Positions 4,182-62,749 are shown, counted from the first letter of the whole stretch. The stretch: DNA of 63,783 nt, filler included, from Choristocarpus tenellus KU-1152 (GCA_964200185.2; 8 parts of 8 records of this genome joined end to end with filler, not necessarily neighbours in it), one strand, 5' to 3'. The notes: generated by a model from the letters alone, not told the origin. Translations and numbers: made by a program.

Positions 4182-4365
4182 GACCCAAACTATCTTGGGG
4201 AGGGAGGGGTCTACAACAGGGTGTCCAGTTGGGTTAGAACCAGGAAAAGTGAACGTACATTATCCATACATACGACGTACGCAACCAAATCACCCAAAAA
4301 TCGGGACATGAAAAAATTGGCCCCAAATGGACAACCGCCACCCCCCCCCCCAGATACTTTGAACC
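4182..4365. mobile_element. MITE, family A (complete)
   Basis: GACCCAAACTATCT...AGATACTTTGAACC termini, inner GTCCA(G)TT/AAATGGAC motifs, flanks TGC/TGC; similar to copies at 20408, 51723 and 52761. Confidence 0.85.
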
Positions 4366-6577
4366 TGCCTGACCTTGCCGGAAAGGAGAAACCTTTCAGG
4401 ACGAAGGTCCGTGATCGTAATGGGACGATCATCCATCGTGTAGGAGGTCGCAGTCCAAGTACAATAGTGTGACCGGGGATTGGGTTTTGAATAATGAATA
4501 AATCGAGCTCCTCGAAAAAATTAAGCAATGCGCCGAACTGACTATGAGATGAGCATGAAGAAGTAAAACTACTTCTCAATACTAAAGTAATGGGTTTTAG
4601 ATTCCTTCAGACGGTTGTTGTTTTTGTGTTACGTAGTCTGGTATTTATTCGAACTGTTACATATTTTGTATGATGAAATGCGGATGTTTGCAACGTCATG
4701 AGGGTTGTGTCCTTCAAGAGGCCCTATGGTACATAGTGGTAGTTTGCATACGAACAATTACTAATAGTCTCGAGCTTGTGGGCTGATCGAGCATTTGGAT
4801 AGGAGGCGCCCTCGGTCATAACAACTGCCCGACTGAAGATATGTGTGGTGATGTTAACGACCAGAGCTTTCATCATCATTGCCACCAATTTCTTTCGCAT
4901 ATATGTCATGCGACAATACAAAGGCGAGGCCATGCGAACATATAGCAATCCGTGTCAGTATGGAATGAAGGTAACACTTCAACTCAAGCCAAGACCGAGT
5001 TCGACAACTCCAAATATTACCAGATAGATGTACGTTCTGGTGGTGTGGTTTGCGATTCTAATATATCGCTTGGTAGTTCAAGATGGTGCATATAACAAGC
5101 AGTGCTCGTCAAAGTCGACGCACACAACTTTTTGGGGGGAGTGGAACTACAACTTATACTAATCTGATGAGTGGGAACGTGAGATGGCAAGTGGCATCAA
5201 CCACCACCGCCAACCTCTGTCATTGACACAAGCCATGAAAACAGAAAATCAGTCCCACATATTATTTTAAGAGTTTGTAAGATTATTCATCATTTAAAAA
5301 GGAGTCAGGAATGGTGACAGTACACTACCTCCCAAATAGTTTGCATCCGTGGCAAAGACAGATCTTCTACGCAGTTCATGCTAACATGATGCCTTGGAAG
5401 TCACTATCTCATTATATATCAGCCTGAACTGAGCGATAAAGTTGCCCTAAGCACTGGAATGGTTCTCCAATGTGTATCGCTGACTGTGCCTCACCTTCGC
5501 AAAAGGTCAACCACCAAAGCCTCTTGAGATGAAATAGTCAACAGTTCACATTAACCATAGCTGACATATCATTACAAATAATTATGATTCGTGTATTGAG
5601 TACTGGAGAACATTCCCTTGCGATAGTGCATGGAATAGGGTGAGAACCCACATAGGCAAATTGGGTGAACTCAGGAAAACAGCAAGAAAGTCCGTTTGTT
5701 GTGTGTGCTACTGTTCCAAGGCGTAAGTTGTATTGATTGCTATCTGGAAACCCCGAGCATTGTAACCCTCCCCAATTGCCAGCATATTGCACGTAACATT
5801 GATTGGACTTGTGCACCACAATTATTGAGAAATCGAGGGACTGTTCTGTTGGGGGGTAAAACTTAGGGAGATATGCCCTTCGTATTCTGATCGTTTTGAT
5901 AGTTAAACGCTTGATAATACACATAATTTTGCGAGGGCTAGATCTATTCGGTAACAGCAGCAACTATCTACAACTACATTTAACCACGTATCATTAGATA
6001 TATAGGCTCATACTAGTACTATTAATTCGGTGCCCCTCATATTCCCAAAACCGCATCCACTCTGCACCCGCTAGACTAAGCAATAAGATCAATCTTTGTC
6101 CAACAAAGGAGTCAAGCAAAGGTAGGAGAATTTGTTGGCATCTATTCTTCCACGCAGCTTGCTCAGTCAGTGTCGGCACAACCCAATACCAGAGCTATTA
6201 ATACATGCTTATCTGGCTAACAAGTCGATTGGATAATGAACAGTCAAGATAACCAATACACAGTTCTAGGTTCCGACGGCCCACCATGTGTGAACTACAG
6301 TCACCTTTGTCTGAAGGCCAATGCCAAGATCGATTGAGTCAGGGAAGTTGCAAGTGGAAAGCACCACATTATTCAATCAATGTAGCTTATTATCATCAGC
6401 TAATTGTATAAATCATGTTGCCTTTTGTGCAATTGCCCCTACATCTTTATCTTGAAATTGATCTATACTAAAAGAAAATGTCAGTCAGACATCAAACCAC
6501 TGAAATCAACACCAAATACCTCAACAATGGTAGGCAGCACAACACCCAACAACAATTGACTGTAGCGCTTTGCATAA

Positions 6578-6740
6578 GGTTCAAATCATCTGGGGGGGGG
6601 GCTCGGCTGTCCAATCAGGGCCCATTTTTCCATTTCGCGATTTCGGGGTGAATTTGGGTGCATGCATCGGATGGATGATGCAAGCGAACTTCACCTGGTC
6701 AGGGCCCGAATGGACACCCTGGTGTAGACCCCCCCCCCCC
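6578..6740. mobile_element. MITE, family A, opposite orientation, truncated by gap
   Basis: GGTTCAAATCATCTG(n)..GTCCAAT ... AATGGACACCCTGGTGTAGACC(n); reverse-complement match to 4182-4365. Confidence 0.8.
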
Positions 6741-6840
6741 NNNNNNNNNNNNNNNNNNNNNNNNNNNNNNNNNNNNNNNNNNNNTTAATTAATTAANNNN
6801 NNNNNNNNNNNNNNNNNNNNNNNNNNNNNNNNNNNNNNNN
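6741..6840. other. Artificial contig linker (N44-TTAATTAATTAA-N44); identical linkers at 12037-12136, 17137-17236, 20574-20673, 43465-43564, 52979-53078, 59221-59320; separate 10-N gap at 41459-41468
   Basis: Identical 100-bp spacer carrying stop codons in all six frames. Confidence 0.98.
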
Positions 6841-6863
6841 CCCCCCCCCAGATACTTTGACCC
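6841..6863. mobile_element. MITE family A terminus at contig start
   Basis: C(n)AGATACTTTGACCC. Confidence 0.7.
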
Positions 6864-11971: not shown

Positions 11972-12036
11972 GAGCCAAAGTATCTTAGAGGGTAGAGCCG
12001 CGTCCATTTGGGGATCAAAATACAATGTTGTGATTT
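11972..12036. mobile_element. MITE family B, short-spacer end, truncated by gap
   Basis: GAGCCAAAGTATCTTAGAGGGTAGAGCCGCGTCCATTTGGG; near-identical to the start of 45876. Confidence 0.85.
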
Positions 12037-12502
12037 NNNNNNNNNNNNNNNNNNNNNNNNNNNNNNNNNNNNNNNNNNNNTTAATTAATTAANNNNNNNN
12101 NNNNNNNNNNNNNNNNNNNNNNNNNNNNNNNNNNNNGGGTTGTCTCACTTCTACTTGTATTATGTTTCTTTAAGCACTGTGCTTTTTTCTTCAAAAAAAA
12201 AAAAATGAATATTATTAACCTCTAACGTTTTCGGCTCAATTAAACACCTCATTTACTCCACTCAATCAAGATCAAAATAGTTAAATCAAACTGAAGGCAA
12301 TCGAACCGTTGCAGCTAGCAACACCAGAAAACACACCCCACATAATATATGACACCATATGTGTGATTAGGCAAAAGAACAGTAATCCTTACGTTGCACT
12401 TGTATCGAAATTAAATTATTGCAGTGGTATCAACGATTAAGGGTTAGGGTTAGTTGTATCACTGGTTAAGCTCTGTGTCTAATGAATGCTCCCTATTCTT
12501 GC

Positions 12503-12647: not shown

Positions 12648-13652
12648 ACAGAAGAAGTAAAGAACAAAAAAAGAACAAGAAAATAAGCGAAAGAAGAAAA
12701 AACGTTGTTCGGTAATGTGAGGGATGAAATAAAAAAAGGTACTCACTTGCAGCCCGAGAAGATAGGGTACTATATTTTGCTAGATTGAATACGTTGAAGT
12801 GTTACATATATATATATATATAAATGTTTTTCTTATGTTTTGAGACATTGGAGAAAAAAAGGAGTAAATATTTGACAGGCAGACCAAAGCAAGAGACCGA
12901 TCGACCACACCAACAAATTGACGACTTGTGGGGGGTAGTGAGTAGTTTTGAAATATTGGTAGTGAGTAATGTTGAAGTATTGGTAGTGAGTAATATTGAA
13001 GTATTGGTAGTGAGTAATATTGAAGTATTGGTAGTGAGTAATGTTGAAGTATTGGTATTGAGTAATATTGAAGTATTGGTAGTGAGTAATATTGAAGTAT
13101 TGGTATTGTCGAGGTGGGTACAAAGTATGTAACAAGAAGGAAAGGGCGGAGTGGGGAAATAAGGTAATACCATTTTTCTAATAAACAATGAAATGACAAA
13201 TTGTCTGGATAATAGAGAGATTATGACAATATTAACAATAAACAATAATAATAATAAAATGGTATAATAGATTGATGACGGCAACATCGATAATACTAGT
13301 AACGGCGAAAAAAAATTACACACAGAAAAAAAAAGAAAAGCCTAGCATAGGTAGGTTAGAAAAAAAAGCTTTGTTCACAAAAAATATAAAACTTGTATAC
13401 GTATGGGAGGTCTCATGAAAAAAATAAATATACATAGGACAACAAGCACCCGAAGTCATGGCACAGACACGCCTCGGCAGGGTTTATGAAATCCATAAGG
13501 GGTACTCCGAGAGAGGCATTGCGGTCCTCCTTGCCTTATTGTATATGGAGATATTGGGGATAACTTTGTCCGGCCTCATCTCTCGGAAGGCCTCCAAGCA
13601 CTCCTCCAAGCGTCGTGATGAGAGCAGGGCATGGATGAGCGCGGTGTGAACC
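12503..13652 (-). CDS. Pentatricopeptide-repeat (PPR) protein, internal exons 13652-13535 and 12612-12503
   Basis: Spliced product VHTALIHALLSSRRLEECLEAFREMRPDKVIPNISIYNK|VISACGGQGRWREAVSLLQEAKLNKPKRSRPDVITYS fits two consecutive PPR motifs; AG acceptors, apparent GC donors. Confidence 0.8.
12936..13108. repeat. Intronic minisatellite, 24-bp unit, about 7 copies
   Basis: (GTAGTGAGTAATATTGAAGTATTG)n. Confidence 0.95.
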
Positions 13653-14002
13653 CTGGAGGAAAAAGGGATAAAAAAAAAGAAGAAAGTATATTTATTTATA
13701 CATACATGTTCCTAGTGTACTCCTACATATGTGTGCTTAGGAATGTGTTCAAATTAGAAGGAAAAAAATGTGTTGTATGTATGCTCGATGCAAGTATGAA
13801 TCATACGTAAGTAGACAATGGTATATTAACATGTAAGTATCATCTTGGTACTACTGAACGATATTATTATTTACTTATTATTACTACATAAGAATTGTTT
13901 TATAATTATTGATATTGTTTCTTCACAATCGTTGGGACAGGAAGTGACTGGGTTTGTTCCAAAATAAGAAGTCAAGTTAAGGAAAGGGAAGACCATAAGT
14001 GC

Positions 14003-14259
14003 TATTTTTATTATTATTGTCAATATTATTATCATCAATGTTATCGATATCATTATCAATCTTGTTGTTCTCCCTAATATCACGATTTTTGTTATTATTG
14101 TCAATATTATTATCATCAATGTTATCGATATCATTATCGACCTTGTTGTTCTTCCTAATATCGCGATTTTTGTTAATATTGTCAATATTATTATCATCAA
14201 TATTATCGATATCATTATCAATCTTGTTGTTCTTCCTAATATCACGATTTTTGTTATTA
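14003..14259. repeat. Minisatellite, 78-bp unit, about 3.3 copies
   Basis: Repeated ATTGTCAATATTATTATCATCAATGTTATCGATATCATTATC..CTTGTTGTTCT.CCTAATATC. Confidence 0.95.
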
Positions 14260-17136: not shown

Positions 17137-17236
17137 NNNNNNNNNNNNNNNNNNNNNNNNNNNNNNNNNNNNNNNNNNNNTTAATTAATTAANNNNNNNN
17201 NNNNNNNNNNNNNNNNNNNNNNNNNNNNNNNNNNNN

Positions 17237-17261: not shown

Positions 17262-18594
17262 TTTGACTCATTGTGATATGTGGGTAACATGAGATCTGGG
17301 CCTCAAGAGAGACTAGTCATGAAAGTGATTGGGGGGATCTGTACCAGACATGTATCCAAAAATCTTTTTACATAGACAATAGATTGTTACGGCAATGCAA
17401 GATATACACGCTATGCAAAGGAGAATGTTACCAGCAAAACGAAATCTCAAGTCAAGACGGTTTGGGACGAGAAATTTACTGATTATACAATCCATTTACT
17501 GACGTTAGGTTGCGATCATTTCATAGCATTGTGGGATCTGTTCTCTGTTCTTTTGTGAAGGTCACAGGAGGGTCCATAGCCACAAAAACGAAAGCAATAG
17601 ATATCAATTGTGGACGAACGAAGACCAGGGGCAGGTCCATGTCCAACAATACTATCAATAATGTACTGGCAAACGAAGGGTTGAGAGGATTGACGTTCTG
17701 CTTCTGGTAAGGGTAACGCTCTTCCCAGAAAGAAATATGGCAGTTAATTCAAGTGGTATGAGGGGTTTGACTTGGTGATTGTAACTCTTCATTCTACCCA
17801 AATGGACAGAAAATGGACGTGGGTTTTCAGGAAAACGACCATGTGCGCAATGGTTTATACCTTAGAATAAACTTCATATTGACCCTCCAAGACTTCAAAA
17901 TAGAATCATTAGTACTCTCAAGGGGCCTATGGACTACAACTATAGTACCAGTTACCAAAACGGGCTACACGAGACGTTGGTTGGCACATTCCTCATCTGT
18001 AACATGTTTATGCAGGTTCCAGTGTGCCATTTCAAATGCATGCCGTAAATTATCTTGGGTTTGTTGAGTATACTCTTCAGTATTGACATGTATATCAGTT
18101 TGAGATGACCCAGGGATAATACCAACAGGTAAATGAGGCTGTCTTCCATCAAACAGAAGGGAAAACGGGGTTTCATGCGATTTTGCACTGAAAGATGTGT
18201 TACGGGTTAATTGCTCAAAAGGTAGTAACAATGCTTGGTTATCCCCAGCAACAAAGATATAACCATTTCTAGCATAGAATGCAACGTGGCATGTACTCTA
18301 ACGCAGATTTTTCTTGGGGGAGATACGTTGTGGTTTTTGGTTTTCTTGTAACCTAAGACATAGTCCAACTCTGCAATGATAATGTATTCGAATTCGGTAT
18401 CATGGTCGGAATGTAACAACTCTGGTGGACTGAAAATAGGAAATTAATGTGCTACCAGCATACGAGCAATTGTTGGGCTTCTTTGTTCGGAAAAAGTGGA
18501 TCAAAGTTTTGAAGAGGGTAGGGCCGCGTCCGTTCGACGTCATAAATCCAATGTTGTGATTTTGATGATGAATTTTGACTATCGTGTTTGATAG

Positions 18595-19278
18595 TGTTAA
18601 AAGATAGGCTAATCAGTCGATTTGCTTTGATACGATACAGCATCATCAGTCATACTGAGCGTTGATTTGTTCATTGCAATGGTCGCTAGTCCCATTTACA
18701 TCATTAGCTCATGTATTCAGTCATAAGTTGCATAGATTTGTCGATTCTTTTTTTTACTTGACTGGCATTGCTAACCATAAGGTATCCTGCTTACTCTGCA
18801 ACGCGTGTAAGACAAACGCCGGAACGCAATATAAACAGGGTTAAAAAACCATCCTTCGAAACCCTTCTCTGCCAAGGCGACAACCATATTCATAGAGGAT
18901 GAATTTCTTCATTTGAGCGCCTCAATGAACGACCACACAGTTTCTATCAATCACAGTCTGCTTCAGTAAAACATGCCACAGACGTACCAGTACCCATTTC
19001 ACTCCAACCAAAGTCTGATTGCGTAAGACGTCCCTTCAGACGCACCGAACCGGACCAAATCCATAGGTGTGTTGTTGCACCGTGACACACACGCTCTAAA
19101 CGTGTTAATCACAGCACAACCAAACATACCTTCATATCGAACACTGTCTGACTAAATACAACATGTCATCAGACCTGCCAGAACAAATTCATCAGTGATT
19201 TGTTGCGCAATGATTTCCTTTGTCACAAACCAGACACATCACAACAAGACACAACTCATACGAAATCGGGTTTCAACA
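18595..19278. mobile_element. Solo LTR (684 bp)
   Basis: TGTTAAAA...TTTCAACA termini, 5-bp flanks GATAG/GTTAG, precisely interrupts a family B MITE. Confidence 0.75.
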
Positions 19279-19320
19279 GTTAGCAAGTGTCAATATCCTT
19301 GCTCCGGATACACCTTTATA

Positions 19321-19581
19321 GAGTGAAAACATATGAGAGGGTAGGGCCGCGTCCGTTTGGGGTCCAAAATCCAATGTCGCGACTTTGATGCAATTTTGGC
19401 ATTCGTGTTTATTAGCAAGCGTAAAATATATCTTGTTCTGGATACACCTTTTGTCGTTGTATACATTCTAGGTGACTTTGTTCAAGCAGAAAACCGAAAA
19501 AGGGCAATAAAAAACCGTGGAAGCCGAGACCCGAATGACAAACAGGGCAAACCTCTTACCCTCTTAAATGCTTTCGATCTC
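19321..19581. mobile_element. MITE family B (inner, nested)
   Basis: GAGTGAAAACATATGAGAGGGTAGGGCCGCGTCCG...TACCCTCTTAAATGCTTTCGATCTC; flanks ATA/ATA. Confidence 0.8.
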
Positions 19582-20407
19582 ATAGTCATACACATTTTAG
19601 GTAACTGTGCTCACATAGAAAACCGAAAAGGGTATAAAAAGTTTGCAAGAAGCCAAGCCCCGAATGGACAAACAGGACAAAACTCCTACCCTCTCAAATT
19701 CTTTGGTCCAAGGCACAGCACAACAATTCCAGTGAGATGAACAACAACAGACAAGACGTACAAGCACATCACAGCATTTCCTGCTGAGGAACGTGTGTTG
19801 TACTCTACAATATTAATTGCAACACGTTGAAATGCTCTTTCAACAGACATGTGGCCAGCGGGAAGTGTAGTTTAGTTTTGAATAGTCTTACAAGTTTCGC
19901 ATGCTTGATAATCACGGCACCATGTACAAATATCGATATTGAATGTTGGCCACCAATATGAATCTCTACCCCTATCAAATGCGGGTTTGAAATCTATAAG
20001 TGGCCTTCAGAAATACGTGATTATGACAACCGTGGAGTAAAAGTCGAACTAGTGAGTGAGGAATGACCAACTGGTCTCTAAACGTGCTCGTCTTACAAAA
20101 ATGGCTAGTATATGTGGACGACAAAAATAAGCCATCACCAAGCAAAAAATACAGCATAGACATTATGGAGTCCTTGTCAGATAGTGGGGCGAAACTGGGG
20201 GACAACTTCCTGAAATATGATCCAAACTCGGACTCCTGCTGCCCCTTGCACAATTGCTCCAATTTCACTCTAGGGGATAAAGTGGTGGAACTACTACAAA
20301 ATTCACGATCACTTTGGACAGTATTTGCTTGGACAAAGTTAGGACCAGATAACTCATATTCCTTTGGACACGTACGATACAAGAGCGATTACATGGGGTG
20401 CATTATG

Positions 20408-20573
20408 GACTCAAAGTATCTGAGGGGGGGAGGTGGGGGATCTACACCAGGGTGTCAATTTGGACCAAAACCAGGAAAAGTGCACTTATGTTATCCATCC
20501 GACGTATGCAACCAAATCACTCAAAAATGGCGACATGAAAAAATTGACCCCAAATGGGCAGCCGTCCCCCCCC
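20408..20573. mobile_element. MITE family A, truncated by gap
   Basis: GACTCAAAGTATCTGAG(n)..TCTACACCAGGGTGTCAATTTGG; interior matches 51723. Confidence 0.85.
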
Positions 20574-20673
20574 NNNNNNNNNNNNNNNNNNNNNNNNNNN
20601 NNNNNNNNNNNNNNNNNTTAATTAATTAANNNNNNNNNNNNNNNNNNNNNNNNNNNNNNNNNNNNNNNNNNNN

Positions 20674-20743
20674 GGTCATTGCCCAAAATGGACCCCCTGG
20701 TGTAGACCCCCCCCCCCCTCCCCCCCCCCAGATACTTTGGGTC
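20674..20743. mobile_element. MITE family A long-spacer end at contig start
   Basis: AAATGGACCCCCTGGTGTAGACC(n)AGATACTTTGGGTC. Confidence 0.85.
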
Positions 20744-21099: not shown

Positions 21100-22420
21100 A
21101 GTAAAGTTACCTGCTGGGTTGAAGTCGGAGCAGAAGCTCCAACCACTGTCGACGAGTGTATGGAGGATGTGTTATCAGTGCTGTTCTAGCTACACCGATA
21201 AGTGAGTCCCAACATTGTGCCGCATGTAAGGAACTTAAACAAGCATTTATACCCATATTGTCAGATACCATGCTCACTGTAAGTGAAACAGAGCAGATAC
21301 TCGATGTTGCGCCAAATTTGGGCAGTGTTTGCTTTGAGTAAAAGTATCTTAGAGCGTACGAGTTTTGCCCTGTTTGTCCATTTGGGGCTTGGCTTCCCAT
21401 GTTTTTTTTAATGGCATTCTCCTACTCCAAAATATTTCGAGTAGGTAAAATGTGTACCTTATGAAAAGGTGTGTCCGGAACAGGGATATGGAGACTTCCT
21501 AAAAACACGATAGCAAAGACTACATCAAAATCGCAACATTGGATTGTAGCTACCAAATGGACGCGGATCTACCCTCTAAGATACTTTGGCTCTTTTTCAA
21601 AGCAGGAGTTGGGCGAATATACTACAGATCCTGTTCAATTTCTACTTGAACCTGGGACGCGTCCGGTTAATCGTGCTCCATATCAAGTGCCTCTCTGAGT
21701 TCAAGACACCCTTCCCAAGTACATTCTACAGATGGAAATTCAAGGAGTTGTGTGTTCATCTATAAGCTCCTAGTCCTCACCTGTCAGGCATACAGTCACA
21801 GCTGATGGATCACCTCGTTTTTGCTGTGACTACTACAGACATACACTCAATGAACACCCAGTCCAACAATCTTGACCTTTGCTGTTCATGGAGGATTGAC
21901 TCAATAATTTAGGAGGCGCAAAGTACTAAGTTGCGTAGTCAGTCAGAGCTTGTTGACAAATTCCAATCACAGATGAGGAAGCACGTCGAAAAACCTCGTT
22001 CCTCACTCGTGATGGTAAAAGGGAGTTCCGTATACTACTATATATACGAGTTGGTAATGCGCTGTGGGTGTTCTGAAGTTTTATCTCTACCTTATTTTCT
22101 GCTTTTGGTCCCTTGTGGAGGCTCCTTGATTGTTTAGAAGATACAGTACTAGCATCTCTCACCCAGGAAAAGCATATTCACTTGATCGGGAGAGTACTAT
22201 CCACCCTCCAAGCCACAGATGTCGCTCTCAAACCATCTAAATTACAGATTGGATTGAAAAAGATCACATACCTGGATATAGTGTCACTCCTGAAGGTATT
22301 GCTGTCATTTAGTCAAGAACAGAGGCAATCAATAATCTTCCTCCTCCATCCAACCTCAAAGTCTTCAATCTTTGTGGGGGTCAGATGAACTACGTAAGGA
22401 AATATATAAATAATATATAT
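21100..22420 (+). mobile_element. Decayed Ty3/Gypsy reverse transcriptase
   Basis: LEPGTRPVNRAPY, SSPV..DGSPRFCCDY, LGGAKY, KTSFLTRDG, HLIGRVLSTLQATDVALKPSK..ITYLG; stops and frameshifts. Confidence 0.85.
21336..21592. mobile_element. MITE family B (complete, 257 bp), inserted in Gypsy pol
   Basis: GAGTAAAAGTATCTTAGAG...CTCTAAGATACTTTGGCTC; flanks (C)TTT/TTT(T). Confidence 0.9.
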
Positions 22421-41501: not shown

Positions 41502-41532
<31 letters not shown>

Positions 41533-45875: not shown

Positions 45876-46135
45876 GAGCCAAAGTATCGTAGAGGGTAGG
45901 GCCGCGTCCATTTGGGGGTCAAAATCCAATGTTGCGATTTTAATGTAATTTTGGCTATCGTGTTTGTTAGGAAGTATCAATATCCTTGTTGCAGACTCAC
46001 CTTTTCATAACGTATACATTTTACCTACTCCGAAAATACTTTGGAGTAGGAAAATGTCGTTAAATAAAACATTGGAAGGCAAGCCCCAAATGGACAAACA
46101 GGGTAAAACTCGTACCCTCTAAGATATTTGCACTC
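45876..46135. mobile_element. MITE family B (complete, 260 bp)
   Basis: GAGCCAAAGTATCGTAGAGGGTA...TACCCTCTAAGATATTTGCACTC; no clear TSD. Confidence 0.9.
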
Positions 46136-46267: not shown

Positions 46268-46539
46268 GACCCATAGTATCTACGCTAGAGGAGGGGTAAG
46301 GCGTCCATTCGGATCCGGTCGAATCTGTAGGGATTTTAGTGTCATCTGAGTGAATGTGTCAGATGTAAGGGCAATTTCCTTCATCTCAACGCACTTTACT
46401 TTTCCACCCCCCTGCCTGAACCAGATCCGAGAGGGAAATACTCACGAAACGAGCATCAAACTAGGGTACCTTATAACACCCCATCAAATACCAAGTGGAC
46501 AACCTGGGCTAAACACGCCCCCCTAAGGTACTACGGCAC
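46268..46539. mobile_element. MITE family C (complete, 272 bp), opposite orientation
   Basis: GACCCATAGTATCT...AGGTACTACGGCAC; flanks ACT/ACT; reverse complement aligns to 23765 and 35104. Confidence 0.85.
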
Positions 46540-46544
46540 ACTGG

Positions 46545-47900: not shown

Positions 47901-48232
47901 AGAAGTGATGTATGTGTTGAAAGATGGTGCAGGATATGACTGGAGTTTAGAGTTTGACTGGATTTGTATGTAACAATTCTATATAAAGCAAAATATGTGA
48001 TGCAGGATGACAGCAATGAGAGAGAACTAAAGCTGTGTTGGTTTTGTGAAGGCATTACTTGTTTAGTTAGACAAACTGTTTCAATTGTATAGGATGGTTT
48101 GAGTACCTAGAAGTTGGTATTACAAGACAAAGTAAGCAATGAACAATAGCATTGATTTGCTCTTTACAAACCATACTCGAAAATACATCAGAGAGAATAA
48201 GCAGCTGCAATAGCTACTTCAAAGTATATAGT

Positions 48233-48491
48233 GAGTCAAAGTAAACTACAGGTATCCAGGGTTGAATTTTTCAGGATGCCGACAAAGATTTCCAAATTCC
48301 AGCATTTTGAACTAATGCGTGTAGGGAATTATCTGATTTGTGTCGATTTTTTTTTAAGAAAAGAGAAATCAACGCTTCTCAGATCAATATTTGTACTTCA
48401 TACATAGAAATGCGGTGAATCGAAGAAGATAAAAATATGGGTTAAAATGCAAATCAGCCAAAACCTGGGTACCTCTTGTTTACTTCGGCTC
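48233..48491. mobile_element. MITE family D (complete, 259 bp)
   Basis: GAGTCAAAGTAAACTACAGGTATCCAGG...CCTGGGTACCTCTTGTTTACTTCGGCTC; flanks AGT/AGT; homologous to 62490-62749. Confidence 0.85.
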
Positions 48492-49449
48492 AGTACAAAA
48501 TAGTAAGTTAACTATTGAATTGCAATTTTGCAATTTTGCACTTTTTACTTCCTCACTACTACCCACTCTCCCTTTGACTACTCCTGTCCCTAGGTCAGCG
48601 ACCAAACTCGAAGCTGGGAACACACTCACCATGGTGGCAATTGTTGGGTTCTGTGCCTTGAAGGAGCTATAGTGATCATGATAGAAGATGAGGTAGGAGC
48701 TCTTGGGACCTTTGGGCCTTGATAATGTTTTGGTGGCATCGAGCAGAAGACAGTATTTACAGCAGGTAAGACAGAATGCATGCAGGAAAGTAAAAGTGGA
48801 GCAGGGTGGTTGATATCATGAAAAATACAGCAATCTCTACTTGGAATTTATAAATAACTCCTTGTGTCAAGCCGTGTGTCAAAGTAGCCGAGAGGGTACC
48901 TGTTTTGGACGTTTTGAGTCTTGTTTTTAGGTGTATGAAAGCATTTCAACAAGGGGACGGGTATTGGTAAGCTGCTTCTGCAAAGTGAACGTATCCACAA
49001 AACATTCGAAATGATCTCCACCGCTGTGGACTAAGTGCTAAAGAAACGTGTGCCATGAGAAAGTCAGAGTGCTTCTCATATACCACGTTCATTACGCTTC
49101 AGTCTGCTTATTCTTGACATCCCCTATTACCTGCAGTCAAAAACACAACCGCACTGTACAGATATTCCTAAGCCCAGCACGATCTTACCTCACCATGGGG
49201 AGTGTCGGACATTCTGCAACAGATCAAGCCTTGGGCAAGGAGTTTGTTACAATTCTGATGGCTGAGGTTATCTCATGCTGATTGCAAGGATGCATGAACA
49301 ATGCTCCAGGATGCAATGCTGCTACTGATAGGACAACTTTGAATATCTCAACTATGATATCACCCTGTCAAATAATCTGGAGTATATTATGAGCATCGTT
49401 ATAACCGACCCATTCTTGCTTTTATTTGTACAGCACTTTACCCTTTGAT

Positions 49450-49705
49450 GAGTCAAACCTAGTGAGGAGCAGGCAGGGTTGCATTTGAATGATTCCGAAA
49501 AAGGGGAAAAAAAAACATTTACACACCTACAGAAAGAGGCTTTGCTAGATCGTGGTGTTACTTTGTGTGTGGGAAGGGGGGAGTGAATTTCGCGTACAAT
49601 AATGCACATATAGGACAATATAACAGAATATGTTGCACAGGGTGGGGAAGTTTCATTTTAATGCACAAGGGTCCAAACCTGCCTACCTCCTAATTTATTT
49701 GGCTC
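49450..49705. mobile_element. MITE family E (complete, 256 bp)
   Basis: GAGTCAAACCTAGTGAGGAGCAGGCAGGGTTGCATTT...CCTGCCTACCTCCTAATTTATTTGGCTC; colinear with 58789-59045. Confidence 0.8.
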
Positions 49706-49846
49706 ACATTTTTAAAGTTAAATTTTGGAATAACTAATTTGATCTAGAGCACAGTTTCTGGACACTCACTGCCTGGTTGTCATTGTTGTATTGAACTATG
49801 TATTACTTTGTTCGTCTCCTGTTTGCCCCTCTCGCACACTACTTGT

Positions 49847-50099
49847 TAGTCAAAGTATCTTAGAGGGCAGAGCTGCATCCGTTTTGGGGCCAAATCCAAT
49901 GTTTCGATTTTGATGTAATTTTGGCTATGGTGTTTGTAAGTGTCAATATCCTTGTCCCGGGCACAACGTTTCATAACATATACATTTTACCTACTCTGAA
50001 ACATTTCGGAGTAGGAAAATGTTATGAAAAGCCCGTGGGAAGCCAAGCTCCAAACGGACAAACAGGGCAAAATTTGTACCCTCTAGGATATTTTCGCTC
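49847..50099. mobile_element. MITE family B (complete, 253 bp)
   Basis: TAGTCAAAGTATCTTAGAGGG...ACCCTCTAGGATATTTTCGCTC. Confidence 0.9.
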
Positions 50100-51722
50100 T
50101 TTTGAGCACCTGTCTGGTTTGTCCTTGACAAGCCTCTCCATAGCTACAATCTCAGCCCTCCTAGCTGCCTTCCTCAACTTGTCCTCCTGACGGACTCTTG
50201 CCTTTTCCTGTCTGCAAGTAAGTGGACGGATTTTATCCATCTCTTTTTTGGCCTTTTTTGGGGGGCGATTGGGGGACCTAGCAGAGAATACTCCAGGTGA
50301 TGCACCGCTCTGATTGTGGAGAGGCAAGAGACGAGTCTTGGCAATGAGTTATCGAAATGACTTGAGGGTACCCTCGTAGAGATCGTAAACAGAAGGTAGA
50401 AAGTCGCGATTCACTGTTGTGTTATTGAACAGCTAAATCGAGTGCGTGTATAGATTTCTACCTATGCATAGCTCTAGCAACTTTCTTCATTACTTGAGTT
50501 TGTGTATCAATCCTGTGTACATAAATATAGTTTAAAGGGTAGCATGTGACGGAAAGCAATCACAAAAAAGCTCCATGGGTGTGACTGAGGAACGATAGAA
50601 ACAAAGATAAATATATGTTGCATTTATGTAGGATACAAAACTGCTTCACTTAGGATCTCAACATAGGAATATTTCAAAAAATAAATATCGCATACGTCTC
50701 AGTACAGCATGACCAATAAATTTAACCTTAGTTGGAACACTGGAAACAATGCACCTGGCCCTGGCTGTGCAGGGCTAGAAGTGTGCTTTCTATTGCAGTC
50801 GTATGTGCTTTGTGGATTATATATTTTTTATGGCAGCAAAGGAGACTCAATTATTTTGCAAGTTTGTTATAATGGTTGAAAGTAGACATACCATACATTT
50901 CGATCAAGCTGGTCAAGGAAACACTGTGAGGAGACCGAACTAACTATATGTGAGTGTGAGCTGAAATCCATTACACACCCAACCAAGCAGCATATAGCAC
51001 TGACTCATCGATATCAAATATCTACACGAGCTCTTTCTGGTGTATGGTCTTCCATCATATTCAAAATAGCATAATAGAATTTGTCCAACCTGAAGCAGTG
51101 GCGTTTGGTCTATCGACCAGGTGTCTCTCAATAAGTCTAAGGGGCTAGACTCAATCTTCACAGGTGTCCCATAGGCAGGATCTCCCTGACATACAAAGCA
51201 CCCAATTAATGAAGTACACGGAAATGTAAGAGAAGGTACCAGGTGCGGATTCAAGAAAAGGGGAAGAATGGAGAAAGGGGAGAGAGGAAATGTATCATAT
51301 ATGGAAGGGATACATCAATGGTGGCAATGGACTGGAGTTAACCCTTGGACACAGAACCCAAGGAGTGGCATTAAGGTGTGCTCGAGGGGTCAAGGCACAT
51401 GTTCTGCAATTTATGTCCTGTTTCAAATGAGACAGTTAAACATCGCAATATGCAAGGCAACTGGAGGAGAAAGGTCACTGTTCAGAAGGTGGGGTAGACT
51501 GTATGACTGTTCGAAAGGAAAAAAGAGGGAAATCATCTGAGAGCTAGGCAGCGTTGCAATAAGGATCTCGAGAAAGGGAAAATTTATATGCTATTATGTA
51601 CAATTGCAGAAGAGGCTTTGCTGAATTGTCGGATGCAATACTGCTGAACATTGTGCATATAATGCACCAAGGCACTAAAGCCTTAGCAATATTTGATTTG
51701 AAGATCACGGTGTTACCTTTCA

Positions 51723-51897
51723 GACCCAAAGTATCTAGGCGGAGGGGGGGTCTACACCAGGGTGTCCATTTGGGTCAAAATCAAGAAAAGTGCATTTACA
51801 TTGTCTATCCGACGTATGCAACCAAATCACCCCAAAATTGCGACATGAAAAAATCGACCCCAAATGGACAACCGCCACCCCCCCCAGACTTTGAGCC
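51723..51897. mobile_element. MITE family A (complete, 175 bp)
   Basis: GACCCAAAGTATCT...AGACTTTGAGCC; flanks TTCA/TTCG. Confidence 0.9.
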
Positions 51898-52760
51898 TTC
51901 GAGCTTTGAAATAAAATGTGTTGCTCAAATCCTAAATGAACAGTGTGATTGTTCAGTCATCTGCTGAGCCTGTGTCAAGGGGTGGGCTGCGAACGTAACC
52001 CGATACATCTCACCTGCCACGTAGAGGAGCCAACATCCAGGCAGCGCTTGACACTGCTTGTCGGTTTATTGAGGTGAAGGATACCACCAGAATGAGTAGG
52101 CGTCTTGATCTGTTGTAGAGGAAGAGTATTAGCATGGTACGAGAGATCAGTGTATGTTAGTATGAGATAAGTTTTATCTCCATTCCCGCTGCTCAGAACT
52201 CCACTACATTTGCAGTCGATCCTCATCAACTGTTGAAATGTTTGCAAAGCTGAAAAAAAATCGCAGAATTGTGAAGTCTATTGATCAATTGTGAGTCCTA
52301 GCGCAGATTTGAACGAAGTACAGTATTATTGATATACTTATAACAGACCTTTAGTGCTTTGAATTGCTATGTACTATACTTCAGAATGAACGTTAGTACC
52401 CATCTCCACATCCCTCTGAGAGGCTAAGGCTCTAACGATATCGAATACATTATTCTATTATGCAAGTGATCCTTATTTTTTCAAGTCTCTATCCCACAAA
52501 CGCGTTATCCAGGAGTAGATAAAAGTATAGTCCTCTCTTCCACAAAATTTAGCAAGTATTGGTAATGTTACAGAAGGCACTCTAGACCACTTTGAACGCG
52601 AGATGTTGCAAGAACACTTTACTCTCCAAGCAAATATCCTGTAAGAGCGAGGAGATATGTTCTACCTCCCAATAGGTAATGAGTGGGGGTTGTTCTTTTG
52701 TGACCCTTCAAATACATCCTGTGTGTTTACTGAACTACAAAGAATGCCAAGAACTGCAAA

Positions 52761-52937
52761 GGGTCAAAGTACCTGAGGGTGTGTGGCGGCTGTCCACTTG
52801 GGGTCAATTTTTCATGTCGGGATTTCTGGGTGATTTGGTTGCATACGTCGGATGCATAATGTAGCTAAACTTTTCCTGATTTTGTCCCAAATGGACACCC
52901 TGGTGTAGAACCCCCCCCCCCCCCCCCCCCCCCCCCC
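52761..52937. mobile_element. MITE family A, opposite orientation, far terminus missing after poly-C
   Basis: GGGTCAAAGTACCTGAGGG..GTCCACTTGGGG ... AAATGGACACCCTGGTGTAGAAC(n). Confidence 0.85.
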
Positions 52938-54017
52938 GCACCAGCGACAGGAAGGCCACAGATACAAAAAAAAAAACANNNNNNNNNNNNNNNNNNNNNN
53001 NNNNNNNNNNNNNNNNNNNNNNTTAATTAATTAANNNNNNNNNNNNNNNNNNNNNNNNNNNNNNNNNNNNNNNNNNNNCACTCTTCCAATCTCTGGAGGG
53101 CTTCGTGACAGGCATCACGAATATGCGTTTTTTTTTTCTGATATCTACATCAAAAGTTATGACGGGACAACCCCAGAGGGTGAAGCTACCTGTACCACTA
53201 TAGTACATTTTCTTATCGCCCATAGTAGACAAAAAACCAAGTGAATTTCGTTTTGTGCAAACACTCTACTATATATTTTTTTGTGTTCCATAATAAAGTG
53301 TTCGTTAAGAGCCAAATCAATTGAAAGGCAGACAGGTTTGAACCCTTCTGCATTCCAAGTCATCTTTTTTACACTGCGCAATACACTCTGACTTGATTGC
53401 TTAATCTATAAAATATTGTACGCAAAATTGATATTCCCCCTTCCCACACACGAAATGACACCACAATTCAGCAACAGCTCTTCTTACTGTAATCTTACAA
53501 TATAATAGCTCTTTGCCTTTTCGTGATCCTTAAAATGCAACACTACCCACCTCTCGGTTTGACTTGGAGTCAGTGGCGAAGGCCGTAGCAAATAAATTTA
53601 GAGGGATTTGAACACCTTCGATGCTTGACTTCTATTCTCGGAAATCTGGTTTCGATTATGCGATTCAACAACACGGCAAGTTCAAGGGATTGGATTCTAC
53701 GCCTTGACTACTATCATCTGTGCGCTTGTATCACGAACACACCGGACAAAGATCAAGATAGAAACTTGTGGCAGGTCTAGCAGAAGATTCGATGGAGGAG
53801 GCGGAATAACGAGGAGTGAGAGCGGTGGTGAACCGAATGTATGAGAAGCAAGACAAGAACGAAGACAGCATAGATAGTTGTATTGCAACAATTGATCAGT
53901 TCAGTATGATAAGTAGTTTGTGTGTAGTACATCTGATCACAGATTGGGATTATTCTCCACTAATGTGATGCTAAAAAAAAAACAGTAACGCCAAACAGAA
54001 ATACGTTAATAATATTA

Positions 54018-55880
54018 CAGTTGATGTACCTATATAAGAGAGATGGATATAAGAGAAACAAGATATAAGACAGGTTTTGGCTTTTTCCTTCCAATTATCT
54101 CTTACATAGAGCAAACTTTCATTCTTTTTCACTACTTGATAGAGTGGTTTCTCTAAAAGCCATGTCTAGAGTTAAGCAAAATATACAAAAGCACAAACCT
54201 GCTCGACACCACCACTACAAAACATACAGTCTCTTGTCTCTCAGTACTGTACAGTACAGTAAGTACAGCATGTCACATCAAGTTTAGATGACTGCATTCT
54301 ACAGATATAACGATGCCCTGCGCATCGGGATCCAGCTGCAACATAAAGTGTAATACTCCTGGTCCGCCACTATACATGCCGTGTCGTGTTTGTAGTGACT
54401 ATCTTCATCACATTTGTGGCGTCGCGGATCCTTTAGGTGCCAGCAAAATGGAACCCGTGTGGAAATTGTGCGTGAGCCCCACCAAGCGCAAGGCTTCGAG
54501 TCCTCCAGCCAGTGACAACACGGCGTCAAAGTGCTATAATAACAAGAACAAGGGCAAGGGGAAGGTGTTGCCAAATTTATCTACGGAGAAAGTCTCTCCC
54601 TACAAACAAGCCTTGCGGTGCCGACAATCTTGAACGTTTGAACTTTGCAGAGAAGGTGAGAGCGTTGAGAGTCCTGAAGACCATGATGGGAACTGCGGTT
54701 GCTCAAAGTTTGGAATCGATCACACAGCACCCTCTACAATTTGAAGGATGCAACAACCATCATGGAGAACGCACAGACACTGAAGCCTGATGCCAAGTCT
54801 ACGAGGGGTGTCAAACAAGTCGAATTGCATTGGCGCGCGTATTGAAAGTCTGAAATTAGGTTGATTGTGATCGTGATTGAATTGCCTTTCTGCACTGTCT
54901 GCTGATCAGGATCATTATTGAATTTTTTGAAATTGTGCGCGCGTTGCTGTTGTATTGTAATGTCTATACTGTGCACTATAGTATCACAGGTGGCCATTTT
55001 GCTCGTACAAGGTGTCCCTATATATTAAAGAGGATCTCTCTAATGCTCTGGACGCTCAGCGCTCCAAACCCGAAGGAAACCCGTCTCAGGCTTCCATCAA
55101 CGCAGCAAGACCGTGGATCGGTGTGAAAGACAACAATGAATTGGCCAATGTGACACTACAGGGCATGAAAGACCAGCTGAATGAAAGTATCTTAGAGGGT
55201 ACGAGTTTTGCCCTGTTTGCTCATTTGGGACTTGGCTTCCCATGGGTTTTTTTGTAACGTTTTCCTATTCCAAAATATTTCGGAATAGGTGAAACGTATA
55301 CGTTATGAAAAGGTGTGTCCGGAACATGGATATTGACACTTCCTAACAAACGCGAGAGTCAAAAATTACATCAAAATCGCAACATTGGATTTTGCCTACC
55401 AAATGGACACGCATCTACCCTCTAAGATACTTTGACTCAGCTGCTCAAGAAATTCTTCTACCAGTCAGACAATGAAAGCTCGAGTGACGAGGATGACGGT
55501 GGGTTTATGGGAGGGGGCAGTGCATCGGGGGCCGTGAGGAAAGGAGCAACCTCTTCGGTGTTCTCAATTCCTCCACCGCCGTACTCTCAAGTAGCTGACG
55601 AGTTTGCATGTTTAGAAACCACCGTCCAAGAGTGCAGCTTGAACCATGTTTTGTACTAATATATCTCCAGAAAGCAAAGCTGAATTGGCTCAGCGCAATC
55701 GGGGCAAGGGCAATCAAAGAAGCGGATAATTGCGAATTTTTTGGCAGTCGCGATTTTTTTATCAAGGAATAAGTTGTTTTACTTAGTGCGTGCGATGGGA
55801 GGTGCATGACGGTGTAGCTACATTTGATCGACGGTGGTGTTTTCATACTGTACTTTATAATATCCTTGTAGAGTGCAATT
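54018..55880 (+). mobile_element. Internally deleted pogo/Tigger-like DNA transposon remnant
   Basis: TA|CAGTTGATGTACCTATATAAGAG start; Cys/His N-terminus (C..C...LHHICG), HTH-psq-like RLNFAEKVRALRVLK, acidic C-terminal tail (ESSSDEDD..PPPYSQV); no DDE core seen. Confidence 0.4.
55179..55438. mobile_element. MITE family B (complete, 260 bp)
   Basis: GAATGAAAGTATCTTAGAGGGTA...TACCCTCTAAGATACTTTGACTC; perfect 4-bp flanks AGCT/AGCT; removal restores the host frame MKDQL|LKKFF. Confidence 0.92.
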
Positions 55881-58788: not shown

Positions 58789-59045
58789 TAGTGAAATCAA
58801 CCGAGAGGTAGGCAGGGTTGCATTTTAAGGATCCAGAGAAAAGGCAAAAAATATCATTTGTGTACAACTGAAGAGAGAGCCTTTGCAAATTGTGGTGTCA
58901 CTCTGTGTATGGAAAGGGGGAATATCCATTTTTCGTACACTATTGTGCACATGACAGTAAAATTAGAGTTTATTTGCCGAGGGTAAAAAAGATTACATAT
59001 AATCCCAAAGGTCCACGGTTGCCTACCTCTAAATTGGTTAAGCTC
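58789..59045. mobile_element. MITE family E (complete, 257 bp)
   Basis: TAGTGAAATCAACCGAGAGGTAGGCAGGGTTGCATTTT...GCCTACCTCTAAATTGGTTAAGCTC; flanks AAAT/AAAT. Confidence 0.8.
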
Positions 59046-59089
59046 AAATGTCGCTGCTATGCCTTTCATTGCACAACTGCGAGTTGCGG

Positions 59090-59220
59090 GATCTCTTCAC
59101 TTTCTAGAATGCTACCCAGAAGTATTGTCTAAGGAGTTCCATGGTTTGTTGGACACAGGTACCTTCAGTGCTGCAGATGTACCTCTAGGTCGTAAGGCCA
59201 TTGGTTCCAAGTGGGTTTTC
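59090..59220 (+). mobile_element. Ty1/Copia reverse transcriptase start (fragment, cut by gap)
   Basis: EVLSKEFHGLLDTGTFSAADVPLGRKAIGSKWVF. Confidence 0.85.
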
Positions 59221-59320
59221 NNNNNNNNNNNNNNNNNNNNNNNNNNNNNNNNNNNNNNNNNNNNTTAATTAATTAANNNNNNNNNNNNNNNNNNNNNNNN
59301 NNNNNNNNNNNNNNNNNNNN

Positions 59321-60300: not shown

Positions 60301-60679
60301 ACACTTGGGCACCCTTCCTACACAGGAGGGTCGACGGGGGGGTTACCATGCCGACTTTCTGACCCTGGATGTGCCCAGTTCTGGCCTCAAAATCGCCCCA
60401 AAAGACTCCTACTTTGACGGCTTGAAGCACCTCGAGTTTGTACCTGATGGTCCTCGACCCTCACCTTTTCTGAAGGCTGAGATTGCCAGCCCGATTTCAT
60501 TCTGTGGGGTTATCGTCCGATTCGGCACCTTTCTCGCTCGCCGACCCCAGATGTTTCACGGCACAAACGTATGGCACAGAGGTAGTACCATATTGAAGAG
60601 TAAATATTGAAGACGGAGACTGGGGGAAGAGCCCAACAAGTCAGAGGTGTCCCTTCTTTTCCAACAGCGAGAAAGAGAG

Positions 60680-62300
60680 TCACATGGCGAATGATTGTTG
60701 CATACTTGGAACCTCATAGTGAGAAGATTGTGGTGGGTGGATTAGCATGTTGAGAGCTGTACGATTGGTAGCGAACCTGAGTTTGAGAAAGAGACAATAG
60801 TGGACAGTACCATAGTTTGTATATTTATAATATAGGGAAAGAATTTCCGTGGACAGTGCACTACGATGTATGTCAAGCTGAAGCATGTCGTGGACAATAC
60901 CCTATCTACCTACTTTTTTGTTTATGATGATGGAAGAGCATTTCGTTGACAATTCCTAGTACTTTTGTATGTTGTGCTGTGGGAGAAGGCTGTCTTGGAC
61001 AACTTGTACCCAACTTCTCGTGTTTTTGGTTTATTTCCTTAGTGAAGGAAATAGTCTTTGTAAAATGCCTCCAGTGGTTTCAAGTACTTGATGTTGAGAA
61101 CTCAACAGCTTAAAATCCGGTACCTAATAACAGGAGTGCCCCACCCACCTTTACCAAGGGCATTGGGACCTGTTTGAAACACCATCCACCGTATCGTAAC
61201 GGGGGCTTAGTGACCTGTGCAAATCCCACCAGCCGTGCAAACACATTTCGCTATGTTCAAGAGGTGATATTTAGGTGGGACCAAGACAAACCAGGATTGG
61301 GGGGGGCTTGGGATTCACCTGGCACTGAACTCTAAGTGGAATAGACGGGGGATAGTACTCAACTTTGAAGGTGCCGAAGGTGGGAACGGGGGATACAGAG
61401 TTGCCCACTACGCACTTCACACTACATTCTGTACATAAAACAGAAAAATAATGTTTGGGAATAATGATGGCAACAGTACTGCCACTACCAAGTACAGTAT
61501 TTCTTTCCATGAACTCACTCTCCAAAGAAAAGAGTCACACACCACTTGCCTAACCTTATATCCAACTACAAGGAGGGAGTTACGAATAAAAGTTGGCCCT
61601 ACTCAAGTAGAAGATGATAACTGTAAGTGGTTGTACAGCACGGCTTTTTTAGACATCATTCATTTAATGTGCACTGTGTTTAGGGTTTTTACTTGTGCTC
61701 AAGTATAGAAGAAAATTAGTGCCGTAAGGTACAAGTGTTGCACAAGCATATATGTCCCTGGGAGATAACACTCAAGGGGGTTTGCTCACCGGGGTTTGTC
61801 CTGCTAACTGGACTCAACATTGACTATTTTACAATTCTTTCTCAGGTGATACTCTTTTCATTAGAACTGGTGCGTTCATTTTAGGATGAAGAGATGTTTT
61901 TTCTCTTTCCTTGTGTATTTCAATTGACTCCAGATAGCGTTGAAGTTATTCAGCTAATGTATGCAGTATATACTTCACTCTGGGTGGTGTATGTTACAGG
62001 CAATAGTTATGGGCAGCTGTTCGCGATCAGCAGAAAACGAACCCTTACCTTTCCACGCCACACCCTGTGTCAAGGGCGCTATAACAATGTGGATAACTTT
62101 GACTTGTCCACGACCTTTTTCTGAAGTTCTTCTTCTAATCCCTTCATATCCTGCATTGCTGATCCTTCCTGCTCTTTGTTTGTACTGGATGTCTGAGGGT
62201 CACTCCCTCTCCCCCTCCTTGCTTCACCTCTCATTAATGACTTTTGCTGATGAAGGATCGAACCATCCAATGTAGTCTTTGTCATATACTACTCTGGTTG
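60680..62300 (-). pseudogene. Possible decayed Plavaka-like transposase
   Basis: Scattered minus-strand motifs in the expected order: DKTTLDG, IACNIHHPE (cf. YIADxPE), IVHDMLQ (cf. DxLHQ). Confidence 0.3.
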
Positions 62301-62489
62301 TGTAGGGACTTAGGAGGTGTTTTGATTTAGGGATTGTACAAGGCAGGTCGTACCTGAGGGGCTTCGATCAGTCATCTGAACATCTAATAGAATGCAATTG
62401 AAAGGGCAAAAATAAGGTCCTCGGTGGTCCAGTATACATCCGCCTGTCTTCCGTACCACCAACGTGTGCCTACATTCTTGACCAGTTCA

Positions 62490-62749
62490 CCGTCGAGGTA
62501 CCCAAGAGGTACCCCACTTTTTCCCCGTTTTGCTTTTATAAATCAGTTTTTCAATCTTTTGCAGTTCACCCATATTTGTATGAAGTGGTAATTTTGACTT
62601 GAGAAAGTTTACTTGCATATTGTTTGAAACTTTTCGACACAATCCGGAAAATATTTTATACGCATTATTTGTAATAAAAGTCGAATTTTACATATATTTA
62701 CCGATATTCTTAAAATCCAACTGTGGGAACCTCTCGTTTACTTTGACCC
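62490..62749. mobile_element. MITE family D (complete, 260 bp), opposite orientation
   Basis: CCGTCGAGGTACCCAAGAGGTACCC...GGGAACCTCTCGTTTACTTTGACCC; reverse complement aligns with 48233-48491. Confidence 0.8.

Follow-up and report, generated by a model that had tools for sequence, protein, structure and literature searches.

An abundant clan of miniature inverted-repeat transposable elements with unequal ends in the brown alga Choristocarpus tenellus

A stretch of 63,783 nucleotides from Choristocarpus tenellus KU-1152 (GCA_964200185.2), referred to here as the window, contains 17 two-ended copies of a clan of MITEs (miniature inverted-repeat transposable elements), along with truncated and solitary ends. 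Each intact copy has a terminal inverted repeat and, further in, an inner inverted motif, and the distance between the two is typically about 10 nt greater at one end of the element than at the other. Alignment of the ends indicates that this offset is a single inherited, sequence-conserved block that was already in the common ancestor of all families. The interpretation favoured here, with a probability of about 0.6, is that the clan has ends derived from one ancestral unequal pair and is likely moved in trans by a transposase of the PIF/Harbinger type (PHIS) that sits elsewhere in the genome and acts with a DNA-binding partner. What is new is a very abundant and apparently undescribed MITE clan; the kind of unequal-end system that it represents is already known.

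Clan members and their termini

Two motifs identify the clan. The terminal 13-mer occurs 22 times in the window with at most two mismatches, where 2.9 occurrences are expected, and the inner motif GTCCATTYGG occurs 31 times with at most one mismatch, where 7.1 are expected; neither count was reached in any of 100 shuffles. A profile of the first 24 nt of the ends matched 46 places at E <=50, of which 36 were accepted as clan ends and 10 are doubtful, although 23 of the matched ends had been used to build the profile and so match by construction. An earlier note on this DNA had described about 20 copies in five families sharing a 13-bp terminal motif. The clan is real and the motif is enriched as proposed; the inverted repeat, however, is actually about 23 nt long (GAGYCAAAGTATCTTAGAGGGTA-like, the 13-mer followed by a TAGAGGGTA-like segment) and is found in all families, and elements now recognised as an F type had been counted under family D. 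As listed, the families comprise five A or A-like copies, six B, three C, one D, one E and three of the F type. The inner inverted motif is GTCCATTTGG, and the form TTGCATTTT found in families D, E and F, previously regarded as a different motif, is a diverged version of the same one.

The copies measure 176-286 bp, apart from one of 1,212 bp that contains insertions (B6), and no Pfam match was found inside them. Because they are small and non-coding, have terminal inverted repeats, short target duplications at the exact termini and A+T-rich targets, and reach a very high copy number, the elements are MITEs of one clan.

Evidence for the boundaries came from Logan contigs, most of them shorter than an element, of three public runs (one study, the same organism), matched at 80% likeness to a complete family B copy (B1) with its flanks and to the region 45800-52950. 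The likeness ends exactly at 21336, 21592, 45876, 46135 and 51723 in 200-560 contigs per terminus, and beyond these termini of copies B1, B2 and A2 the contig sequences agree at just 0.33-0.36. The flanks are thus unrelated, A+T-rich sequences, and the termini are true insertion boundaries. A target preference sought in the consensus of the loose ends was set aside, as an agreement of about 0.35 is uninformative past A+T richness. Dozens of contigs join the right terminus of family B (21592) to the left terminus of another copy (21334-21337) with 0 to about 25 letters between; either copies often lie head to tail or very close together, or de Bruijn contigs have jumped between copies.

Duplications of 3-4 bp had been reported for the clan, and those seen are mostly of 3 bp. 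An exact 3-mer flanks 4 of the 17 (TGC, TTT, ACT and AGT), where about 0.25 would be expected for 3-mers, and an exact 4-mer is found in two copies in which the 3-mer fails (AGCT and AAAT). Two of three bases match in another 3 of 17, A2 has TTC on either side once a single extra A is tolerated, and the remaining 7 of 17, mostly older copies, have none.

The abundance of the clan is evident in run X1: of its 1,405,250 contigs, 23,935 show at least 80% likeness to B1 and 52,175 to the region 45800-52950. Summed word depth in this run is 0.14-3.7 million over B1, with 27 in its flank. In the second region, where the flank stands at 20-22, it is 1.2 and 0.53 million in bins of B2, 0.45 million in B3, 0.08-0.32 million in A2 and A3, 2,934 in C3 and 1,246-6,434 in D1. 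Being sums over contigs, these word depths do not equal copy numbers and indicate an order of magnitude only; read in this way, abundance is roughly 10^4-10^5 copy-equivalents for families A and B, with C and D at 10^2. These figures fit the density of end-bearing copies in the window, roughly one per 2-3 kb. In the available part of the curated Ectocarpus transposable-element collection, the most numerous family has 4,042 copies and the non-autonomous Harbinger families have at most 236 (PMC12477816). Summed depth over the core of the family B long end (21348-21395) is about 1.9-fold that over the core of the short end (21556-21587), at 2.5-3.7 versus 1.9-2.0 million in X1; this excess could stem from further families with the same long end, from long ends that stand alone or from an artefact of contig depth.

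Unequal ends and a single origin of the offset

Both offsets can be read in 15 of the 17 two-ended copies in the window, and all 15 pair one short end, with 28-35 nt from terminus to inner motif, with one long end of 38-42 nt. In two copies (B7 and A6) a diverged inner motif was placed by reading the sequence and not by script. The short/long differences are 4, 8, 9, 9, 10 (in eight copies), 11, 11 and 13 nt, with a median of 10; the difference is 9-11 nt in 11 of the 15, and all six family B copies are exactly 30/40. The distances quoted earlier for copies of families A, B, C and D/E were re-measured and agree within 1 nt, and the proposal of bipartite, unequal ends is supported. The offset of about 10 bp is not strict, since two-ended copies range from 4 to 13 nt. 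One family C copy that had been left out of the listing (C3, 46268-46539) is 35/39, and two family A long ends, also left out, have offsets of 46 (at 20408) and 50 (at 20743) due to G-runs. The only indel listed in an end is an omission of 4 bases at 46281 in two low-depth contigs, which suggests that other C3-related copies have a short-end offset nearer 31.

Length is accompanied by other differences between the two arms. The sequence ATTT(T)GG, present at 7.15 per kb in 14 elements versus 0.97 per kb elsewhere, occurs as two further direct copies on the short arm of families A and B. In addition, the terminal consensus of the family B long end, GAGTGAAAG, differs from the short-end terminus at bases 4-5 (loose end at 46126). 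Spacing is therefore not the sole mark that tells left from right.

The origin of the offset is indicated by a conserved block of about 10 nt (GTTTTGCCC-like) that lies between the terminal repeat and the inner motif at one end alone. Sixteen long ends, drawn from families A to F and a solitary end, align nearly gap-free (59 columns from 56-nt inputs), and two of the four invariant columns in this alignment, T30 and C35, fall within the extra block. By family, the block is GTTTTGCCC in B, GTTTAGCCC in C, GTCTACACC in A, GTTTTGGCT in D and GTTTGGACC in F. Seventeen short ends are likewise co-linear with one another. When the long end of a copy is aligned with the short end of the same copy, 9 of 11 copies show a single main gap, 7-14 nt long and placed after about base 23-30; in C1 and C3 the gaps are smaller and scattered.

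Comparisons between families point in the same direction. The subterminal part of the family C long end scores z 7.8-9.4 against the B long end and z 1.0-3.8 against the B short end, and the subterminal part of family A scores z 3.9-5.0 against B. When long-end spacers alone were compared among family representatives, 12 of the 21 pairs did better than at least 95% of shuffles that preserved composition, giving the chain A-C-B-D/E/X-F. As the long ends are co-linear and share a conserved block, the offset is one ancestral feature and not a rule kept independently in five families, as the earlier note had held; nor does the long-end spacer, described there as variable, vary freely. The same note had named mere inheritance from one ancestor as the outcome that would undo its case, and it is to this outcome that the end alignments and spacer shuffles point.

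Three further ideas about the ends were considered and rejected, each by eye only. No duplication was seen around the inner motifs, as might be expected had an inner element been inserted in a 70-bp outer one; the extra block agrees with a tandem copy of the inner motif at 6 of 8 bases in B and 3-4 of 10 in A and C; and just 5 complementary bases are available for a hairpin of outer and inner motifs.

Superfamily and a proposed mechanism

In the favoured interpretation, a transposase supplied in trans would cleave at the 23-nt terminal repeat, while an accessory DNA-binding protein would attach to the inner motif and, on the short arm, to the additional ATTT(T)GG copies. The one-sided block would mark one end of the parent element, and the unequal ends would represent left and right, as in piggyBac or P. 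Being 10 nt long, the offset would leave the inner site facing the same side of the helix, as one inherited feature and not as an independently maintained 12/23-like code.

That the transposase would be of the Harbinger/PHIS group is put at about even odds. G or A is the usual first base of PIF/Harbinger repeats, and elements of this group code for a transposase together with a Myb/SANT protein (PMC4482050, consulted in part). The clan termini are GAG, GAC or GGG, and the terminal repeat with the inner motif spans 40-50 nt, in keeping with the G or A start and the usual length below 60 bp of PHIS ends. In the part of the curated Ectocarpus table at hand, a 3-bp duplication is given for Harbinger alone among the DNA-transposon groups. 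Several Harbinger families combine termini of GGGTC-GACCC or GACCC-GGGTC with inverted repeats that are imperfect and 35-43 bp long (PMC12477816), about the span from terminus to inner motif in the clan. Harbinger-N4, -N7, -N8 and Harbinger-5_Ec32 in particular resemble the clan in their GACCC/GGGTC termini, brown-algal host and non-autonomous nature, and in a 3-bp duplication so far as this is exact in 4 of the 17 clan copies, a comparison of five-base termini and lengths and not of full sequences (PMC12477816). The same families differ from the clan in size and number, at 0.8-1.3 kb and at most 236 copies (PMC12477816) versus mostly 176-286 bp and about 10^4-10^5 copy-equivalents. They differ also in target, which is TwA/TnA or AWT in Ectocarpus (PMC12477816) versus TGC, TTT, ACT, AGT and two 4-mers in the clan.

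A number of observations count against the assignment. The palindromic targets of known PHIS groups, as far as covered by the portion of the source available, are TWA/TNA, ANT and CWG (PMC4482050); none of the four exact 3-mers of the clan fits TNA and two of the four fit ANT. The picture for the 3-bp duplication of PHIS is divided, with exact 3-mers in 4 of 17 copies, 4-mers instead in 2 of 17 and none in 7 of 17; the two copies with 4-mers would also suit AcademX (3-4 bp). A five-base terminus is weak evidence in itself, as an Ectocarpus KDZ family also has GGGTC (PMC12477816). Finally, no autonomous element or transposase was found in the window, where a PHIS partner would carry a DDE_Tnp_4 transposase and a second, Myb/SANT-like gene, and the superfamily is one that we infer.

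A real though minor possibility is that the resemblance to Harbinger is superficial and that the clan belongs to another superfamily (AcademX, Zator or a relative of CACTA/EnSpm) or is unclassified. A target sequence that is not TWA, TNA, ANT or CWG would be explained in this way, as would the exact 4-mers. Duplications of 3 or 4 bp are described for AcademX, both lengths being seen in the clan, and of 3 bp for Zator (PMC10045372, in the section accessible), and the scans of open reading frames (ORFs) in the window linked no transposase to clan ends. However, PHIS overall spans duplications of 0-4 bp according to the same section (PMC10045372), so far as the curated Ectocarpus library is accessible it is without Academ and Zator, and Ectocarpus EnSpm families have CAC termini and 2-bp duplications (PMC12477816). 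The G-initial termini and imperfect repeats of about 40 nt, moreover, match Ectocarpus Harbinger families (PMC12477816).

Common descent and possible constraint

Descent of the offset from one ancestor, as suggested by the alignments, would still leave a possible need for asymmetry, and the case from descent is itself not free of difficulties. Pairwise, the subterminal parts of D, E, F and X compare weakly with B (z about 2). Nine of the 21 spacer pairs fail the 95% shuffle level, the four that set A against D, F, X and E among them; no homology was found between the spacers of A and those of D, X and E1, and the comparison of A with F1 is not significant. End lengths have been kept though family interiors are unalignable, and among the indels listed at a depth of at least 5% (B1) or at least 10% (45800-52950) none lies within the B end spacers. 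Kept lengths and indel-free spacers fit constraint as well as youth.

It is improbable, nevertheless, that the offset reflects a transposition complex able to work only with a short end paired to a long one, the inner site lying deeper by one helical turn on one of the sides, and that selection maintains this spacing, as a code like the 12/23 rule, in every family. Such selection would account for the pairing of short with long in 15 of 15 measurable copies, for differences of 9-11 nt in 11 of them, for the 30/40 of all six B copies, for B end spacers without a listed indel among 23,935 and 52,175 contigs, and for end lengths retained where interiors no longer align. A precedent exists in piggyBac, in which, within the portion of the study at hand, only the asymmetrical LE35/RE63 pair was active in excision and in integration alike (PMC7351741). 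Yet common descent alone predicts the pairing without selection, as the extra block is homologous in all families, and the block is conserved in sequence (T30 and C35 are invariant), unlike a spacer that is kept for its length only. Exceptions are found in C3 (35/39), in A1 and A2, whose differences are 8 and 13, and in the family A long ends of 46 and 50, and family A is among the most abundant. The arms are also distinguished by more than spacing, through the extra ATTT(T)GG copies of the short arm and bases 4-5 of the 13-mer.

Low probability is likewise given to a neutral, frozen accident, in which one 10-nt indel of the founder has no role and the inner motif is simply the better-preserved stretch within an inverted repeat that is long and imperfect. 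What was observed is a single homologous indel, copies with deviating offsets exist, and abundant young families would retain any feature of their founder. Against this, the invariant positions of the block have been kept across families whose 23-nt repeats diverged noticeably, and summed depth peaks for the entire B element, at 3.69 million, in the bin that covers the block (21364-21379). In the well-studied elements P and Ac, the left end differs in function from the right. In piggyBac, too, the two ends are functionally distinct (PMC7351741, as far as the text was available). The most far-reaching proposal, that a stramenopile cut-and-paste transposon (PHIS-type or unclassified) synapses only on a short plus a long end, its 10-nt block setting the site of an accessory protein one helical turn further in as a 12/23-like code outside animals and driving one of the largest brown-algal MITE bursts known, is considered improbable.

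Relation to known systems with unequal ends

Bipartite ends whose terminal-to-inner distance differs by about one helical turn between partners are known from the RAG 12/23 system, Transib and P. The clan differs from RAG and Transib in that its termini are G-initial and not CAC, its duplication is mostly 3 bp and not 5, and its offsets are 30/40; it is thus not a Transib. From RAG, Transib and P alike it differs in having spacers of about 7 and 17 nt past the 23-nt repeat, the longer of which is conserved in sequence. The 7-8-bp duplication of the P element is likewise at odds with the mostly 3 bp of the clan, and the curated P-like families of Ectocarpus, in the part of the collection accessible, have a 7-bp duplication and CAAGG termini (PMC12477816).

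The best-documented case of how such unequal ends work is piggyBac (PMC7351741, in the part consulted). As in the clan, the LE35 and RE63 ends share short repeats and one end carries an insertion between them, which in piggyBac is a 17-bp insertion plus a duplication at the right end; in cells, only the asymmetrical LE35/RE63 combination both excises and integrates with the native enzyme (PMC7351741). The clan has one block of about 10 nt and a 3-bp, non-TTAA target instead, with TTAA at none of the 17 copies, and relatedness to piggyBac is not evidenced. The misfit to Transib, P and piggyBac noted earlier thus stands, by termini and by target duplication. The further suggestion of an undescribed end-recognition system is not supported, as a required left/right asymmetry with an insertion between shared repeats is known for piggyBac (PMC7351741). 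Among the cut-and-paste elements that have been studied well, ends that differ from each other are the usual state, and at most the clan works like Transib, P or piggyBac while being a member of none.

Tourist-like and other plant and animal MITEs, such as mPing, offer another parallel in being small, with A+T-rich targets, a 3-bp duplication and huge bursts, and mPing is mobilised by a transposase together with a Myb-like ORF1 protein (PMC9921582). The clan is unlike mPing in its stramenopile host, in a target that is not TAA/TTA, and in bipartite unequal ends kept across six families.

Copies in the window

The window consists of 8 draft contigs of 3.3-22.8 kb joined by 7 linkers, each of 44 N, TTAATTAATTAA and 44 N, at 6741-6840, 12037-12136, 17137-17236, 20574-20673, 43465-43564, 52979-53078 and 59221-59320. 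Since these join separate contigs, a feature that spans one of them does not lie on continuous DNA. Of the 14 inner contig ends, six fall in clan copies or their C/G runs, and several assembly breaks sit within clan copies at C or G runs.

Family A is represented by a complete 184-bp copy, A1 (4182..4365), with the long end on the left (41), the short end on the right (33) and duplication TGC. A6 (6578..6863) lies across the linker at 6741-6840, with a short left end (31) and a long end interrupted in a C-run, and a terminus with a G-run on the minus strand is cut by a contig start (17237..17261). A4 (20408..20573) has its long end on the left, with the offset of 46 produced by G-runs, and a short end cut in a C-run by the contig end. 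A5 (20674..20743, minus strand) is a long end with offset 50, containing two long G-runs and cut by the contig start. A2 (51723..51897) is 41 at its long end and 28 at its short end, where the terminal motif lacks 2 bases. In A3 (52761..52940) the short end is 31, and the long end has its inner motif at 52887-52896 and a C-run of about 29, without the terminal motif. Long G/C runs of up to about 29 replace the TAGAGGGTA block in family A ends (4195-4210, 4340-4352, 20422-20440, 20706-20730 and 52897-52937), and the assembly breaks there.

In family B, B1 (21336..21592) is complete at 257 bp, long 40 and short 30, with duplication TTT and termini backed by the loose ends of hundreds of contigs; the termini of B2 (45876..46135, short 30/long 40) are backed in the same way. 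B3 (49847..50099) is short 30/long 40, and B4 (55179..55438) is long 40/short 30 with AGCT on both sides. B5 (11972..12036, plus strand) is a short end (30) cut by a contig end. B6 (18498..19709, short 30/long 40) is an old copy that holds a 680-bp insertion (18597-19277) and a nested copy, B7 (19321..19579, short 30/long 40). The position of B7 within B6 is a case of the clan inserting into itself; the 680-bp insertion is unrelated.

Three copies belong to family C: C1 (23765..24034, long 40/short 31), C2 (35104..35376, long 42/short 31) and C3 (46268..46539), in which a short end of 35, with 4-5 extra bases past the 13-mer, is paired with a long end of 39 and the duplication is ACT. D1 (48233..48491) is short 29/long 39 with AGT. 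A solitary D-like end of the long type (48876..48931, plus strand) has no convincing partner, and a weak candidate at 49383 (E = 41) was rejected. Among F-type elements, F1 (49450..49705), the second D copy of the earlier note, is short 29/long 39-40, and F2 (53309..53569) has a long end of 39-40 on the left and an uncertain short terminus. F3 (51525..51722, plus strand) is a short end with interior that is broken off at A2, and F4 (58789..59045) is short 29/long about 38 with AAAT on both sides. E1 (62490..62749) has a long end of about 40 with a degraded terminus and a short end of 29.

Host and other features of the window

As judged from sequence, the host is an early-diverging brown alga, neither plant nor animal. 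A Pfam scan of 285 ORF segments of the window gave Myb, HMG-box and weak PPR and zinc-knuckle matches and no transposase; Rfam gave no match in the window. The Myb matches are exons of a gene of the three-repeat c-Myb type (896-1798, minus strand) with an intron within the third repeat, and the exon at 1505-1798 (minus strand) has matches in Discosporangium at 88% and in other brown algae at 82-86%. A land-plant origin, which the Myb and PPR matches might suggest, was rejected, the Myb being of the three-repeat type. An HMG-box exon lies at 47665-47946 (minus strand, E = 3.6e-08) and a weak PPR-like segment, under the Pfam cut-offs, at 13487-13711 (minus strand). A frame at 59111-59220 (plus strand) resembles, by eye, the start of a Ty1/copia-type reverse transcriptase; it is cut by the contig end, and this short piece has no Pfam match.

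Minisatellites are found at 37505-37972, 35937-36299, 12910-13132, 14001-14259 and 42122-42256, with units of 13 bp (about 36 copies), 33 bp (12+9+12), 24 bp, 81 bp and 27 bp. A C-run followed by (CA)n occupies 41490-41532 (run region 41490-41520), and the region from 32 to 44 kb combines richness in A+T with a strong GC skew that reaches 0.25.

Significance of the clan

The clan appears to be undescribed in print for this early-diverging brown alga. Six terminal 13-mers searched in the literature gave two matches, both due to chance, and an 18-mer of the repeat gave 14 loci in a metagenome scan, all of them due to chance and lacking the remainder of the end. MITEs, Harbinger and DNA transposons go unmentioned in the main text of the preprint on brown-alga genomes, whose supplements may hold repeat tables.

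In summary, the abundance of the clan is far above that of any curated Ectocarpus family in the portion of that collection available, the largest of which has 4,042 copies (PMC12477816), and repeat annotation and gene models of this genome need the clan families masked. If the interpretation favoured here is true, this would be an ordinary MITE clan with specialised left and right ends, and its value would be descriptive. Its three-block architecture, of 23-nt repeat, one-sided block and inner motif, would provide a natural substrate set for left/right recognition by two-protein transposases.

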